The notes under the pieces are model-generated. The model was not told the DNA's origin. It was given only the letters and a program-made list of their open reading frames with translations, and ran no database searches. From IMG/VR virus record IMGVR_UViG_3300032246_001180, positions 96,001 to 160,000 of that record: 64,000 nucleotides of DNA. One strand, 5' to 3'. Shown here piece after piece: positions 10,762 to 45,074 of the stretch; within the stretch, counting starts at the first letter, position 1, and each line of letters begins with the position of its first letter. The stretch comes from a virus. The position numbers and the translations under genes were made by a program.

Positions 10762-10952
10762 GTGATGATGTGCATTTTTTAGTTGGTAAAACACCAGAAG
10801 GCCAAACTGTATTGAGAATTGGTGGTAGTGTTTCCACGACTTTAACTATGGGTCAAATATCCACGGTTGATTTGATTAGACTTTTAGTGGCCACACTTGA
10901 TGATGATAAATGGGCGTTTACTATTCAAATTGAACCAAAGGAAAAACTATGA
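10758..10952 (+). CDS. hypothetical protein
   Basis: GGAG SD; ATGA overlaps. Confidence 0.6.
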   Translation: MSDDVHFLVGKTPEGQTVLRIGGSVSTTLTMGQISTVDLIRLLVATLDDDKWAFTIQIEPKEKL

Positions 10953-11158
10953 ACGAACGAATTCGACTACTTGCCATTTCAACGGGGATATTTGATTCAT
11001 TGTGCGATCCATTCGATGAATTAAAGAATGGCGATTGTTATAGTTCGGTGATAATTGATTTGGAAAAGTTCGCCGAGTTGATTGTGCGAGAGTGTGCATC
11101 ACTAGCCTATGATGGACCTGGTGGTATTCTGGATCACTTTGGGTTAGTTGAAGAATGA
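10949..11158 (+). CDS. hypothetical protein (MNERI paralog family)
   Basis: MNERIRLLA...EKFAELIVRECA. Confidence 0.7.
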   Translation: MNERIRLLAISTGIFDSLCDPFDELKNGDCYSSVIIDLEKFAELIVRECASLAYDGPGGILDHFGLVEE

Positions 11159-12929: not shown

Positions 12930-13076
12930 ATGGAAAAGAAAAAAACAAAAAAAACTAGAACACATTATGTTCTGTTTTGTATGAACACTCCGTTTAAACC
13001 AAAACGGGTTGAAAGCAAGGTCGCCTATAAACGGCGTGATAAACACAAAGTGAAGAAAGTTTTAGATTATGAATAA
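12930..13076 (+). CDS. small basic protein, ArfA (ribosome rescue factor)-like; not in ORF track
   Basis: 48 aa MEKKKTKKTRTHYVLFCMNTPFKPKRVESKVAYKRRDKHKVKKVLDYE; fills the gap between neighbours. Confidence 0.55.
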   Translation: MEKKKTKKTRTHYVLFCMNTPFKPKRVESKVAYKRRDKHKVKKVLDYE

Positions 13077-14232
13077 AAATGCAAAAGCATTCATTGTTGC
13101 TGCAGAATCACTCTTTGGTGAAAATTCGGTATTGACCCGTGATGAAATCACCAAAGTTTGTAATGAATCGGCCGCTCCATATCCTTACTGGCTTGTAACA
13201 AAAGCTGAGTATCGTTCTGGTCGTGGTTCTTATCGTGTCCCTAGTTCAGGAGAAAAAGTAGTGAAAAAATCTGTAGCACCAGTTGAAGAAATGGAAACCG
13301 AAGTAGCATATGCTCAAGTTGTTCATTTGCGCCAACCAAAGTTGGTAGATGAATCTGATTCGGCCGTTCCATCAAAATTCCCTGATTATGTGCCATTTGG
13401 TTTTTTCAAAGACCTTAAAGGTATCATTCAATCTCGACAATTTTATCCTGTGTTTGTTACTGGACTTTCAGGCAACGGCAAAACCTTGATGGTTGAGCAA
13501 GTGTGTGCAGATTTGCAACGTGAATGTATCCGTATCAACATTTCTATCGAAACAGATGAAACAGATTTGTTGGGTGGTTTTGCTTTGATTGATGGTAATA
13601 CAGTTTATCGTGATGGTCCTATTCTTCAAGCAATGAAGCGTGGTGCAGTTTGTTTGATTGACGAAGTTGACCGTGGTTCAAATAAACTTATGTGTTTGCA
13701 AGGTATCATGGAAGGCAAACCACACTATAACAAGAAAACTGGCGAAATGGTTTATCCAAAACAAGGATTTACCGTGATTGCTACTGCAAACACCAAAGGT
13801 CGTGGTAGTGATGAAGGCAAGTATCTTTCACAGATTCTTGATGATGCATTTCTTGAGCGTTTTCCAATTACTGTTGAACAGGAATATCCTGATGCACGAA
13901 CAGAAAAGAAAATTCTAAAACCATTGCTTAACGACCAAGATTTCGTAGAACATTTGGTTCAATGGGCTGATGTAGTTCGTAAATCATACCAAGAAGGTGC
14001 GACTGACGAAATTATCTCTACTCGCCGTCTTGTGCATATTGCCAAAGCATATGGAATTTTCAATGACCGTATGAAAGCAATTACATTGTGTGTCAATCGT
14101 TTTGATGAAGAAACGAAAATGGCATTTCTAGATTTGTATTCTAAAGTTGACGCCTCTGTAGCATCGCCTGCGAATACAAGTACCACTACCGTTACTACGG
14201 ATCCATCCGCAACCACGGAAGTACCGTTTTGA
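13069..14232 (+). CDS. cobS: MoxR/CbbQ-type AAA+ ATPase (phage CobS-like)
   Basis: GLSGNGKT, LIDEVDR, ATANTKG, AFLERF, ISTRRL; CbbQ-like C-terminus. Confidence 0.85.
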   Translation: MNKNAKAFIVAAESLFGENSVLTRDEITKVCNESAAPYPYWLVTKAEYRSGRGSYRVPSSGEKVVKKSVAPVEEMETEVAYAQVVHLRQPKLVDESDSAVPSKFPDYVPFGFFKDLKGIIQSRQFYPVFVTGLSGNGKTLMVEQVCADLQRECIRINISIETDETDLLGGFALIDGNTVYRDGPILQAMKRGAVCLIDEVDRGSNKLMCLQGIMEGKPHYNKKTGEMVYPKQGFTVIATANTKGRGSDEGKYLSQILDDAFLERFPITVEQEYPDARTEKKILKPLLNDQDFVEHLVQWADVVRKSYQEGATDEIISTRRLVHIAKAYGIFNDRMKAITLCVNRFDEETKMAFLDLYSKVDASVASPANTSTTTVTTDPSATTEVPF

Positions 14233-14257: not shown

Positions 14258-14286
14258 TTGCCAAACAAGTTCTAATCGTGTATAAT
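14258..14286 (+). promoter_or_regulatory. sigma70 promoter overlapped by a 13-bp hairpin
   Basis: TTGCCA-N17-TATAAT; CGATTAGGGCTTG/CAAGTTCTAATCG. Confidence 0.75.
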
Positions 14287-14341: not shown

Positions 14342-14680
14342 ATGGCTTTAACTGTTCGTAAAGGCAAAATCAATCGCCACGAAAAAATCACCCAAGTGAT
14401 GTTGAGTGGCAAACCTGTAACGCCAGATGAAATCAAATCTGTGTTTGCTGGTACAGACCAAGAAGCGGTCTTGTATCGTTTGTCAACCAACATTTATAAT
14501 ATCCGCAAAGATGGCGGTATCGTAAAAGTTATCAAGAATGGCCGTAAGGTCGAGGCGTATCAGTTGGTTAACTATACAGAGTTTGATGCTAGTGGTCGTT
14601 TCAAAGGCGCAGCCAAAACTGCACCTAAGACTGTTGCACAAGCAGCTGCAATAGTCATGACTGAAACTGTTACAGCGTAA
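14342..14680 (+). CDS. putative winged-helix DNA-binding protein
   Basis: AGGAG SD; basic; RLSTNIYNIRKDG...YQLV pattern. Confidence 0.6.
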   Translation: MALTVRKGKINRHEKITQVMLSGKPVTPDEIKSVFAGTDQEAVLYRLSTNIYNIRKDGGIVKVIKNGRKVEAYQLVNYTEFDASGRFKGAAKTAPKTVAQAAAIVMTETVTA

Positions 14681-14687
14681 GTTCTAC

Positions 14688-14892
14688 GCCATTGTGGAGT
14701 GTGGCTTGTTGTGAAACACCCAATACATTCTACAATGGCACCTCATTAAGTGTTATCAAGGTATCGTTATAGGACGCTATGACTACTCGACAGTTAGGGT
14801 GCGACTGAAACTGTCTGATATAACTGCCACTCGCTCGCCAGTACTAGCTATATTTTTGGCAAATCGGCACGATAACACTTAATGAGGTGTCA
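14688..14892 (+). ncRNA. candidate structured ncRNA bounded by a 19-bp perfect inverted repeat
   Basis: 15-bp hairpin 14688-14739; IR 14739-14757/14871-14889 enclosing three hairpins. Confidence 0.6.
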
Positions 14893-14907
14893 TACATGGA
14901 GAATAAA

Positions 14908-15138
14908 ATGACTGGTTGGCGTAAAAAACAAATTGCAAAATCTGTTGAGTCTGATAATAGTGAATGGAGTATCAGCCAGCAACCTAATGCAGATTGGACT
15001 TACAAATGGAATGATAATGTTGTTTCATTTGAAGAATACAAGAAATTGGTTGCTGACCATGAAGATTTCGTAAAAGAAATTGAACGAAAAAAGTTGGAAG
15101 AAAATAAACCTGTTAAAACCAAAAAGGTTAAGAAATGA
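14908..15138 (+). CDS. hypothetical protein
   Basis: GGAG SD before ATG 14908. Confidence 0.65.
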   Translation: MTGWRKKQIAKSVESDNSEWSISQQPNADWTYKWNDNVVSFEEYKKLVADHEDFVKEIERKKLEENKPVKTKKVKK

Positions 15139-29629: not shown

Positions 29630-29654
29630 CTTTTTAGCAAGGAGCATATATAAT
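29626..29654 (+). promoter_or_regulatory. sigma70 promoter upstream of the tmRNA
   Basis: TTGACT-N17-TATAAT. Confidence 0.7.
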
Positions 29655-29784
29655 GAACTTTAAACGTAAAAAAACAAAGAGGTGCGTTCGTTGTACAATG
29701 TGTACACAGCATCGATGGTTAGGTAACAACAAAGGTCGTAAACCTATCCGTGATATGCGAAACGAACAAAAAGAATTGTTGTAA
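29653..29784 (+). CDS. small basic Cys-containing protein (not in ORF track)
   Basis: AAGGAG SD; MNFKRKKTKRCVRCTMCTQHRWLGNNKGR... Confidence 0.55.
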   Translation: MNFKRKKTKRCVRCTMCTQHRWLGNNKGRKPIRDMRNEQKELL

Positions 29785-30068
29785 TCCCTTCTAAGCGAAG
29801 GACTTCTGGACGGGGGTGCGAATCCCCCCAGCTCCACCAATTATCTACTTTTATCCGGAAACAGATAATTATTCGGATTAAATAAAAGTGTATAATTGAT
29901 GGGGCTGCATAGTTTCGACAGGGGTAGATAGTAAAGACGGCAACACGGTAGGCGATGACCGTTAATCAAGCAAAACAAGTAAACGCAAACGATAGCGAAT
30001 ACGCATTAGCAGCTTAAAGGCCGCTTAGGGTTTTTGGCAGTTTATCCTCGTAACAGAATTAAACTGCC
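29785..30068 (+). ncRNA. ssrA: circularly permuted (two-piece) tmRNA; tag ANDSEYALAA; outer ends approximate
   Basis: acceptor piece: T-arm GGGGG-TGCGAAT-CCCCC and CAGCTCC-A-CCA ending 29839; intervening hairpin 29840-29900; coding piece starts GGGGCTG at 29901 (G3.U70); tag frame 29985-30017; inter-piece pairing CTAAGCG/CGCTTAG. Confidence 0.95.
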
Positions 30069-30138
30069 TAAATAAATTTACTAGACAACACACACAATCG
30101 TCTAGTAATACACATAAACACACACAAGGAGTAAAAAT

Positions 30139-42147: not shown

Positions 42148-43095
42148 ATGGCTATCATTTCAATCCCACAATCAATTGGTGGTATAACAATTCCCGGCAG
42201 CGTTACCAATGGACCGTTAGGTATGTTGTTTGGTAAAAAAGGCGCTGGCGGTCTACAATATCCTAGAGATTTAGGTTCGGCCACAAGAGGTCATTCTGTT
42301 AGGTTTGAAATTACGGAAATTCAACCAACTGGATATGAAGCGGGCAAAGAATATAATTTTTCATCAATTGGAAGTGGTCTTACTCAACAAACTACTGATG
42401 TTGCTTCTGCTGTTTCTGCTGCTGGTGGTTTTACATCTGGTGCAGGTTTAGCGGCAGGAGCTGCTAAATTGTCATTATCTCCACAAAAAAGTAAAATTAT
42501 ACAAACCATAGATTTATATATGCCCGAAACCATGGCCTTTTCATATGGCGCATCATATGATGATATTAGTTTAAAAGATGCAATACAAGAGGCTGTTCAA
42601 GGTGTTTCTTCAGCAATAGGTGTGGGTAATGTTGTGCAAGGTGTTAGTGGTGCAATAGATTCACAAGTTGCTAAGTTAGCCTTAAAATCTCAAGGCCTCG
42701 CAATCAACCCAATGAAGCAATTAGTCTTTCAAGGTATCTCATTTAGGGATTTTCAAATGACGTTTACTTTTACACCTTATTCTAAACAAGAAGCTCAGAC
42801 GGTTACAAAAATCATTGAAGCATTTAGAACGGCTGCAGCACCAACTATTAATAATGGTACTGGCGGTATGTTTTTTATTCCACCTTCAGTATTCAATATT
42901 AAATTTCTTTATAAAGGCAAAGAGAATAAAAACATCAATAAAGTTACCGAAGCGGCAATAACAACGATTGATGTTAATTACGCTCCAAACGGATGGTCTA
43001 CACACTCAGATGGTGCGCCGGTACAAACTCAAATGACTATAAGCTTTAAAGAAAATGCTCTTGTTGATAGAAACAAGATTAAAGAAGGTTATTAA
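42148..43095 (+). CDS. gp48: baseplate tail-tube cap gp48
   Basis: YP.DL, LYMP, NP....F.G..FR.F.F.F.P.S..EA, VNYAPNG. Confidence 0.85.
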   Translation: MAIISIPQSIGGITIPGSVTNGPLGMLFGKKGAGGLQYPRDLGSATRGHSVRFEITEIQPTGYEAGKEYNFSSIGSGLTQQTTDVASAVSAAGGFTSGAGLAAGAAKLSLSPQKSKIIQTIDLYMPETMAFSYGASYDDISLKDAIQEAVQGVSSAIGVGNVVQGVSGAIDSQVAKLALKSQGLAINPMKQLVFQGISFRDFQMTFTFTPYSKQEAQTVTKIIEAFRTAAAPTINNGTGGMFFIPPSVFNIKFLYKGKENKNINKVTEAAITTIDVNYAPNGWSTHSDGAPVQTQMTISFKENALVDRNKIKEGY

Positions 43096-43703: not shown

Positions 43704-45074
43704 ATGGCAACCGTTACTTCAGTTCCAGCAGAAACTAAGGGTATAATACAACCTCAAGATTATGCTATAAAAACTCTAAATTTTTTGACCGCAAGTGGTC
43801 AAAGAACAGAGATAAAAAAACTCATGATATCTTTAGATTATTATGAAGACATATATTCTTTTGTAACCTCGGGTTCTGTTACAATATTAGATGCTCAAGG
43901 ATTTCCTGAACTGTTACAATTAACGGGAAATGAATTTATTGAAATTAATTTTGGTAAATATAAAGACGCACCAAACACAACAGACCAAATTTTTCGTGTA
44001 TATAAAATGGGTGAAAGAAAACCTCACGGAAATTTAAATACGCAAACTTTTACCTTATATTTTTGTTCTGAAGAATTGTTGTTATCGGAACAAATAAAAA
44101 TTAGTAAGTCATATACTGGTACTAAAGTAAAAGATATTATATCCAATATATTAATTGAACATTTAAAAGTGAAACCTCAAAAAATAAACGTTTTAGAAGA
44201 CACGTTGGGTGTTTATGATTTTTTGTTGCCAAGAATAAAACCATTTGAAGGAATCAGTTGGGTATCAACTTATGCACGACCAGCAAAAACTGATTTAATT
44301 GGTGCTGATATGTTGTTTTTTGAAACAAAAGACGGATTCAATTTTAGGTCTATACAGTCTATGGTTTCTGATAAACCTTATGGCACATACAAATATCAGT
44401 TACAGAATTTAGATAAAAAAAATGACAGTATAGCTGAAAAAATGTCTAGCATTATGGAATATGAATTTACAAAAACATATGATGCTCTTGGAGAAATTGC
44501 TAAAGGAACTTTTGCTAGTAGATTATTGACAATCGATCCATTAACACGTTCTTATCAAACAACAGATTATGATTACAGTAAATTTCAAAAAGACGTTAAA
44601 AGTTTAAATGACAATCCGGCAATAAATGACATGACCAATAGATTAGGTCAATCATTAACAAAAGCCGCAGAAGGTGTTTTTAAATTTATGACTTCAAATC
44701 CAAATCAATCTTCAGTAGGTTACATTAAAGAAAAACAAGCTGGAGTTGCTAAAGATATTTACGCTGAAACGTATGTATTGCAAAGAACCGCACAATTATC
44801 TTTAGCCAGTTATAATATTATTAAGTTGACAATTCCTGGTGATTCTGGTATTACAGCAGGACGAACAATAGAATTAAACTTACCAACAATACAACCTACT
44901 GAGAAAAAAAGAGAGTTGGATAAATTCTATTCAGGTAAATATTTAATAACGGCTGTAAGACATTCAATTACTGTGAATCAATTTACAACCATTTTAGAAA
45001 TTGCAAAAGATAGTTCTCCAACTAAACCTGGTGATACTAATAAAACAGACTATAAATCAAGTGTAACTGCATAA
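43704..45074 (+). CDS. baseplate hub protein (gp27/P2 gpD-like)
   Basis: between gp53 and gp5; YEDI, G.E, FFET..GFNF.S, IPGD, SGKYLIT.VRH. Confidence 0.7.
   Translation: MATVTSVPAETKGIIQPQDYAIKTLNFLTASGQRTEIKKLMISLDYYEDIYSFVTSGSVTILDAQGFPELLQLTGNEFIEINFGKYKDAPNTTDQIFRVYKMGERKPHGNLNTQTFTLYFCSEELLLSEQIKISKSYTGTKVKDIISNILIEHLKVKPQKINVLEDTLGVYDFLLPRIKPFEGISWVSTYARPAKTDLIGADMLFFETKDGFNFRSIQSMVSDKPYGTYKYQLQNLDKKNDSIAEKMSSIMEYEFTKTYDALGEIAKGTFASRLLTIDPLTRSYQTTDYDYSKFQKDVKSLNDNPAINDMTNRLGQSLTKAAEGVFKFMTSNPNQSSVGYIKEKQAGVAKDIYAETYVLQRTAQLSLASYNIIKLTIPGDSGITAGRTIELNLPTIQPTEKKRELDKFYSGKYLITAVRHSITVNQFTTILEIAKDSSPTKPGDTNKTDYKSSVTA

Follow-up and report, generated by a model that had tools for sequence, protein, structure and literature searches.

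The stretch of DNA considered here (the window, 64,000 nucleotides in all) runs from position 96001 to 160000 of an IMG/VR virus record of 168,242 bp, which is rated complete; the GC content is about 36%. Its CobS-like protein has its nearest counterparts among cultured phages in Pelagibacter myophages and cyanomyophages, at about 50% amino-acid identity, which on sequence grounds identifies the source as an uncultured T4-type phage. The genome carries 24 tRNA genes, all of them ending in NCCA and located at 42.2-47.1 kb, as well as a permuted tmRNA, while the 64-kb window contains no tRNA gene. The tmRNA, which is phage-encoded and two-piece, occupies positions 29724-30108 of the window, has the tag ANDSEYALAA and is matched by the tmRNA model for beta-proteobacteria; an ORF for a basic, Cys-rich protein of 40 aa (29654-29776) overlaps the 5′ region of this RNA, and tmRNA models are the only ones matching the whole window at the Rfam gathering score. 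Elsewhere in the window (10848-11000) a 15-bp inverted repeat, ATGGGTCAAATATCC / GGATATTTGATTCAT, encloses 123 nt. Neither an RNase III gene nor a Ro/TROVE gene was found in the genome of this phage. A reverse transcriptase (PF00078) is also absent from the complete 168-kb genome, control genomes being positive, in agreement with the first-pass annotation of this DNA, which had remarked that none is present.

The locus in question follows a gene for a CobS-like AAA ATPase (13069-14232). The next gene, up112 (14342-14680, plus strand), encodes 112 aa and was defined from the ORF list and from Pfam/PHROG scans; upstream of it a sigma-70-like promoter, TTGCCA-17-TATAAT (14258-14286, plus strand), was assigned by consensus match only, with 11 of 12 positions matching. 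No terminator-like site occurs between this promoter and the element described below, and the promoter is the likely source of the element-bearing transcript. The stop codon of up112 lies 8 nt before the start of the element, and the intergenic gap (14681-14895) holds both structures of which the element consists. Beyond the gap there is an orphan ORF of 80 aa (14896-15138, plus strand), for which no relatives were found and which has, in addition to the ATG at 14896, an alternative start at 14908 with its own GGAG (14898-14901) situated outside the long stem. Among GenBank phages no match was obtained for the element or for the 10 kb around it (blastn/megablast), nor for the 112-aa protein (tblastn).

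Hairpin 1, the upstream structure (14688-14739, plus strand), pairs 14688-14702 with 14725-14739 over 15 bp, 87% of them Watson-Crick, the remainder being two G.U pairs. It is made up of a 7-bp basal stem, GCCAUUG/CAAUGGC, prolonged to 15 bp here, and of an inner 4-bp hairpin with a GUGA tetraloop (14707-14718). Directly behind it stands ACC (14740-14742), in the position of the discriminator and CC of a tRNA and at the same time within the 5′ arm of the long closing helix, P1. This arm, the "stalk" (14735-14757, plus strand), overlaps the 3′ strand of hairpin 1 by its first 5 nt and ends with 9 inner nucleotides, AGUGUUAUC, that are invariant in the family considered below; the 3′ arm (14871-14893, plus strand) contains GAGGUG (14884-14889), which may serve the ATG at 14896 as a Shine-Dalgarno sequence. 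In the repeat search the arms measure 23 nt each, are 96% complementary (one G.U) and enclose 113 nt. The first-pass annotation, made from the letters of the window, had described a long inverted repeat with one G.U around 113 nt and a separate 15-bp hairpin with two G.U pairs preceding it; both were found again, the former at 23 bp and the latter at 14688-14739.

The plus strand folds at -79.5 kcal/mol (z = -5.8, none of 200 shuffles being as good), against z = -3.6 for the minus strand. The inner stems pointed out in the same annotation (GTTATAG/CTATGAC, GACAGTT/AACTGTC and TGCC/GGCA with GCCAG/TTGGC) are all contained in the minimum-free-energy fold and coincide with P2, P3 and P4 of the covariation analysis. 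The element is single-copy in its own genome, and stems of at least 20 bp enclosing 20-280 nt number only two in the whole 168 kb, namely P1 and one located in the tRNA array. P1 is an uninterrupted double-stranded RNA of about two turns, with 23 bp here, as an RNase III processing stalk requires (at least about 20 bp); the closing helix thereby has the length of an RNase III substrate, and cleavage may be predicted from this length.

The enclosed RNA and its family

The RNA enclosed by P1 (cargo Y, 14758-14870, plus strand) is predicted to form a four-way junction of 113 nt, the connecting segments of which are invariant: AAGGUAUCGU (J1/2) between P1 and P2, ACUA after P2 and CUGAUAUAACUGC after P3. 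P2 (14766-72/14777-83) has 7 bp and a GACG loop, P3 consists of 6 bp (14789-94/14810-15) plus 2 bp (14797-98/14805-06), and P4 is three-part (14825-28/14866-69, 14837-40/14857-60 and 14842-43/14851-52). The spacing between P4 and P1 is 0-1 nt, and the order of helices is cloverleaf-like. GCGA in the P3 loop (14801-14804) pairs with UCGC on the 5′ side of the P4 internal loop (14831-14834), giving a pseudoknot. The row of the window copy in the family alignment, AGUGUUAUC...AAGGUAUCGU...ACUA...CUGAUAUAACUGC...GAUAACACU with P2-P4 and GCGA:UCGC, contains all invariant columns and pairs.

Homologs were collected by exact-word scans, and the statistics of their contexts are therefore biased to copies keeping those words. 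With a 17-nt interior word, 7 viral contigs were recovered, each of them having the whole 113-nt interior; more word scans brought the collection to 73 distinct variants in viral contigs, in addition to metagenome-contig copies, and 71 sequences were aligned (alignment A2), the cores of which are between 54% and 95% identical to the window copy. An early reading of the interior as unconserved, which came from a blastn search of the element against 80 relatives of the up112 locus that gave no match, was overturned by these scans. The first-pass annotation had named lack of conservation of the interior as one of the outcomes that would speak against it, and the interior turned out to be conserved among 71 variants, the window copy keeping all invariant positions.

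The alignment supports the fold in several respects. Pairing is found in 97% of cells versus 75% in shuffles, both partners change at 33 of the 50 pairs, and the covariation score of 0.556, versus 0.169, was reached by 0 of 500 shuffles; when the partners are slid by 1-3 columns, pairing falls to 34-44%. The pseudoknot (columns 70-73 x 101-104) is 100% paired, as GCGA:UCGC in 51 sequences and as GCCG:CGGC or GCUG:CAGC in 20. P1 measures 17-24 bp, most often 19-21, in 68 of the 69 distinct copies, with a cargo of 109-114 nt; its inner 9 bp are sequence-invariant, and the 8-12 bp outside them covary freely, the window having other outer pairs than the tRNA-array copies, with changes on both sides at 11 of 20 pairs of the stem. 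The covariation analysis which had been advised from the outset, run on the 71 variants, gave covariation in every helix and in the pseudoknot, and the earlier suggestion of selection at the RNA level is sustained by G.U pairs and compensatory changes in every helix, on the plus strand.

The window copy scores 182 bits with the covariance model R1, of whose ten training sequences it is one, and has E = 5.5e-39 in nhmmer. It is 90-95% identical to the closest tRNA-array copies, the figure for orthologous tRNAs of these phages being mostly 75-90%. Comparison of the variants strongly supports the four-way junction with its loop-to-internal-loop pseudoknot, and by the same comparison the element is an intact member of a large, widespread and uncatalogued family of pseudoknotted phage RNAs. 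A natural deletion derivative was encountered at L314:93-170, which retains the stalk and the initial ~25 nt of Y behind a tRNA end but has lost P3 and P4 (...GTGTATGGACGCAT|CGATAACACT...).

Searches of catalogues gave no counterpart. The covariance models of Rfam 15, which cover hammerhead, twister, hairpin, HDV, pistol and hatchet ribozymes, riboswitches, YrlA, GOLLD, ROOL and tRNA, had no match in 14640-14940 at E<=10, and the idea of a ribozyme, raised in the first-pass annotation, finds no support as far as the ribozyme and riboswitch families of this release are concerned. For a second member of the family (L306) there was one chance-level match (E 9.9), and at three tRNA-array loci only tRNAs and sub-threshold matches appeared at E<=1, none of them on Y or on the neighbouring RNA X introduced below. 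An invariant 18-mer, sought in 185,579 prokaryote genomes, met one unrelated chance match and no homolog, and the family appears to be phage-only as far as exact words tell; the exact 19-nt arm had 0 matches in viral contigs. No published description of the conserved words or of tRNA-array stem cassettes was found in the literature searched.

tRNA arrays and the same mRNA site in relatives

Apart from the window, Y was found in 80 other distinct contexts, all of them in phage tRNA arrays and on the tRNA strand. In about 45 of these 80 the upstream tRNA, mostly tRNA-Glu(UUC) and sometimes that for Asp, Gly or Leu, ends 7-8 nt before the invariant GUGUUAUC, and its (A)CCA opens P1 by pairing with UGG(U) at the 3′ end. 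Another stem-closed RNA, X (~200 nt), separates tRNA-Glu from Y in about 22 contexts, and five contexts have no upstream tRNA within 400 nt. On the other side, most contexts have the following tRNA beginning 12-17 nt beyond the invariant ...CACU of the 3′ arm, immediately behind the stem; in relatives with adjacent X and Y both are located between tRNA-Glu and tRNA-Tyr. The window copy is the only copy of Y found without a neighbouring tRNA, its helix starting on ACC behind the acceptor-like hairpin.

The source phage also has stems of this kind in its own tRNA array, at least three more of which start at CCA, and Y lies 67 kb from the array that contains X. The X of this genome (43538-43759, L240:1539-1760) has an interior of 176 nt and a 23-bp stem starting on the CCA of tRNA-Glu, gave no match in Rfam and is homologous to the ~200-nt RNA preceding Y in L204-L210. 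Two more CCA-started stems of the same genome (L240) enclose ~55 nt at 43883-43982, behind tRNA-Lys, and ~100 nt at ~42966-43095, behind a tRNA-like stretch (~42880-42968) not called by ARAGORN.

The mRNA site itself was followed in relatives of up112, of which 145 were found in viral contigs and 80 kept, a CobS-like gene being upstream in 72 of the 80 kept loci. Many of these relatives have no gap after the gene, or an ordinary terminator. About 20 distinct ones share a two-part layout, namely a conserved hairpin, existing in two forms each with a GNRA tetraloop, and a long perfect stem beginning at its foot, with the ribosome-binding site of the next gene at or just after the 3′ arm. The content of the stem varies. 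It is empty in L010, L022 and L035 (an 18-bp hairpin with three G.U pairs), it is filled by a three-way junction of 45 nt in L009, L013, L019, L023, L030 and L068, and it holds inserts of ~85 nt in L015-17 and of ~90 nt in L041; the outer part of the window stem (CACCUCAUUAA-G) matches that of L023, L041 and L068, which hold other inserts. Since four or more unrelated inserts, or none, are found in the same stem across relatives, the stem is to be regarded as a slot with exchangeable cargo.

Some of these inserts recur elsewhere. The 45-nt module, which can be written as ACGAA / CCGA..CUGG / UAGCAAA / GGC-GNRA-GCU, is also seen just after a promoter and directly upstream of a permuted tmRNA in L099:6300-6370, L200:7350-7410 (minus strand), L190 and L191. 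Its interpretation as a hammerhead and as a glutamine riboswitch, the latter prompted by a paper on the Melnitz phage (PMC9004378), was rejected on inspection by eye and with Rfam. Two more copies of the ~90-nt insert of L041 were met at L032:3774-3878 and L051:747-833, one placed after a different gene and one ~60 nt upstream of cobS, which is a further sign of module mobility. In ten of the 80 relatives a lone tRNA-Tyr and/or tRNA-Glu is found among small ORFs near the pair of cobS and the 112-aa gene, in nine of them just upstream of cobS (L041:1081-1669, L004, L010, L011, L016, L022, L028 and L035 are among the ten). X and Y are flanked by this same pair of tRNAs in the arrays, and tRNAs are thus not foreign to this neighbourhood.

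Hairpin 1 was compared in 13 relatives (alignment A3). Pairing holds in as many as 99.3% of cells, both partners vary at 6 of the 11 pairs, and none of 500 shuffles reaches the covariation score; the 7-bp basal stem always starts with G-C, the inner 4-bp stem with its GUGA loop is a constant part of the structure, and ACC is invariant (13 of 13). The second form of the hairpin in relatives ends in ...GGCC-G-CCA, the long stem starting exactly at CCA. Because the tRNAs of this phage end in NCCA and the CCA of this second form opens the stem, the hairpin stands where the acceptor end stands in the arrays, and hairpin 1 may be treated like a tRNA end. Neither ARAGORN nor Rfam gives a tRNA match for hairpin 1, its upper part is a GNRA hairpin and not a T-arm, and in the window U, not A, follows ACC. 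Its origin as a leftover 3′ end of tRNA-Glu was considered and dropped, the sequences not being convincingly alike. A promoter-like motif inside it (TTGTGA-16-TACAAT) was likewise discarded, in that the motif covaries as a GNRA hairpin and relatives are without the -10 element.

Possible biogenesis and competing interpretations

Y, an RNA gene in the tRNA arrays of other phages, is located here in an early operon behind an acceptor-like hairpin, and we consider it reasonably probable that it gives rise to an excised trans-acting RNA with concomitant release of a Shine-Dalgarno sequence. According to this proposal the element would be transcribed together with the 112-aa gene, and RNase III of the host would cut the two-turn stem; the phage being without an RNase III of its own, such processing would depend on the host. 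The ends may also, or instead, be set by tRNA-end processing, with RNase P acting at the next tRNA in the arrays and with the acceptor-like hairpin taking part here. The product would be a nuclease-resistant, helix-capped RNA of ~150 nt acting in trans, and the same cut would uncover the Shine-Dalgarno sequence of the downstream gene, since GAGGUG (14884-89) belongs to the 3′ arm and lies 6 nt before the ATG at 14896. The second start at 14908, with its GGAG outside the stem, makes the link with translation uncertain, and weak if this start is the one used. We infer the roles of RNase III and RNase P/Z only from the length of the helix and the likeness to tRNA ends. RNase III takes part in processing of the T4 tRNA-cluster precursor.

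Regarding the function of the enclosed RNA, its near-exclusive company of tRNAs together with the presence of a tmRNA in the genome points to a role in translation or in tRNA-directed host defence. That relatives have empty stems speaks for a stem able to work without cargo, and conservation of the cargo above that of the phages' tRNAs speaks for a separate function of the cargo itself. A wider generalization is offered as a tentative one: a CCA-type end followed by a stalk of ~20 bp may constitute a portable slot for RNA cassettes, a self-contained processing and stabilising signal effective anywhere in a transcript, with Y as a new class of RNA acting on the translation or tRNA machinery. 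Phages of this group would then insert, swap and relocate functional RNAs, be they decoys, regulators or catalysts, and the window copy would represent a natural experiment in which a minimal acceptor-like hairpin replaces the tRNA.

The same observations were weighed against other interpretations. The stem might act purely in cis, processing or stabilising the polycistronic early mRNA and gating the downstream ORF by hiding its Shine-Dalgarno sequence, the interior being a passenger at its present site. Pairing of GAGGUG within the stem 6 nt before the ATG at 14896, occurrence of the same stem without insert in L010, L022 and L035 (the 18-bp hairpin with three G.U) and, in relatives, a ribosome-binding site of the next gene placed at the 3′ arm or shortly behind it are all in line with this. 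We nevertheless hold it unlikely as a complete account, because the interior, with all invariant positions and the pseudoknot intact, exceeds the phages' tRNAs in conservation, because in 80 other contexts Y stands between tRNAs with no ORF to regulate, and because a GGAG outside the stem could serve a second start of the ORF; a role in cis is possible for the stem and does not explain the cargo. It is quite unlikely, in our estimation, that Y is a decoy or mimic addressed to a host defence or RNA-binding factor such as a tRNA-directed nuclease, one of many that can be swapped in a common stem. The variety of unrelated structured cargos in the slot, the association of Y with phage tRNAs and its cloverleaf-like order of helices, with 0-1 nt between P4 and P1, would suit such a role, and phage tRNAs themselves are thought to counter tRNA-targeting defences. 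Against it, Rfam reports no similarity to tRNA, Y RNA or crRNA, and the genome is without a Ro/TROVE partner.

A new class of self-cleaving or otherwise catalytic RNA, cutting for instance at the boundary of CCA and stem and thereby freeing the 3′ end of the upstream tRNA or minihelix, appears very unlikely. Invariant junction nucleotides combined with a covarying pseudoknot are a pattern typical of ribozymes and aptamers, and the stem starts exactly at the CCA of the upstream tRNA in ~45 of 80 contexts; yet no known ribozyme family matches at E<=10, ~22 contexts follow X instead of a tRNA, and five have no upstream tRNA within 400 nt. Moreover, unrelated cargos and empty stems fill the same slot, and release of the upstream end therefore cannot depend on the Y cargo. 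Finally, a DNA-level element, whether a MITE-like transposon, a cruciform or recombination site or a retron-like msr/msd, is hardly credible in spite of the long terminal inverted repeats, the presence of the same interior at several genomic positions in different phages and the exchange of cargo between stems. The G.U pairs would be A.C mismatches on the other strand, which folds less well; the outer arms differ between copies and are still complementary, with both-side changes in 11 of 20 stem pairs; the element is single-copy in the genome; and there is no target-site duplication beyond a 3-nt ACA. These properties do not fit the MITE-like insertion that the first-pass annotation had considered. 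Its analogy with the a1/a2 arms of retrons fails as well, as the genome has no reverse transcriptase, and the 23-bp flanking repeat bears a superficial likeness only. We retain excision of a trans-acting RNA as the preferred explanation: the feature is real and belongs to a well-supported uncatalogued RNA family as judged by comparison of sequences, and the biogenesis outlined above is plausible.

Relation to known systems

Since species 1 and 2 of T4 it has been known that phage tRNA clusters can include stable RNAs other than tRNAs. These two RNAs, rnaC (139 nt) and rnaD (119 nt), encoded at 70908-71171 of AF158101, resemble Y as non-tRNA stable RNA genes located in the tRNA cluster of a T4-type phage, on the tRNA strand and adjoining a tRNA. 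The resemblance does not go further: rnaC ends in a tRNA-like T-arm and is without a 20-bp closing stem, whereas Y is a four-way junction with a pseudoknot set in a long stem, and its window copy lies outside the tRNA cluster. Covariance model R1 had no match in the T4 tRNA region, and homology to rnaC/rnaD was rejected on account of the different folds and of this result. GOLLD and ROOL are large, ornate, pseudoknotted RNAs of phages and prophages, often found near tRNA islands (bioRxiv 10.1101/2024.12.08.627333). They are five to seven times larger than Y, which differs also by its long closing stem and by its fixed position relative to tRNA ends, and neither model matched the window element (E<=10) or the three tRNA-array loci (E<=1). 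YrlA (RF02553), of the Y RNAs of bacteria and phages, shares with Y a similar size and a long stem of 5′ and 3′ ends closing a multi-helix tRNA-like domain; its conserved sequences are unrelated, and the window element has no YrlA match at E<=10, nor does the genome have a Ro/TROVE gene.

As to processing, P1 is comparable to the RNase III stalks of the 16S/23S rRNA leader-trailer, the early-mRNA sites of T7 and the lambda N leader, where, in a polycistronic transcript, a stable RNA is enclosed or cistrons are separated by a helix of about two turns; the predicted cut would likewise free the enclosed RNA and could expose the downstream ribosome-binding site. P1 differs from the known RNase III sites by starting on the CCA of a tRNA or on an acceptor-like ACC, and the sequence invariance of its inner 9 bp suggests more than a requirement for length. 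A tRNA or tRNA-like structure directly upstream of a hairpin RNA is found in the tRNA-like/pre-miRNA units of MHV68 and in MALAT1-mascRNA, and with such a layout at the Y locus the ends of the passenger RNA could be determined by RNase P/RNase Z. Both of these are eukaryotic or viral nuclear systems, and at the Y locus the stem pairs with CCA itself and its processing is a prediction.

The fixed geometry of P1 with respect to the CCA ends of tRNAs points to a defined processing pathway, and the position of the window copy behind an acceptor-like hairpin of 52 nt suggests a minimal upstream signal for it. If the idea of a slot is true, these phages possess a general way to exchange non-coding RNA genes, and the stem with its hairpin could serve as a tool releasing defined RNAs from longer transcripts. 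To our knowledge none of T4 species 1 and 2, GOLLD and ROOL has a known function. Being compact (~113 nt) and having strong comparative support that includes a covarying pseudoknot, Y is suited for structure determination and biochemistry. To the RNAs already recognized in phage tRNA clusters the window adds the comparative structure of Y, a copy of it outside a tRNA array and an mRNA slot which in relatives is occupied by other cargos.
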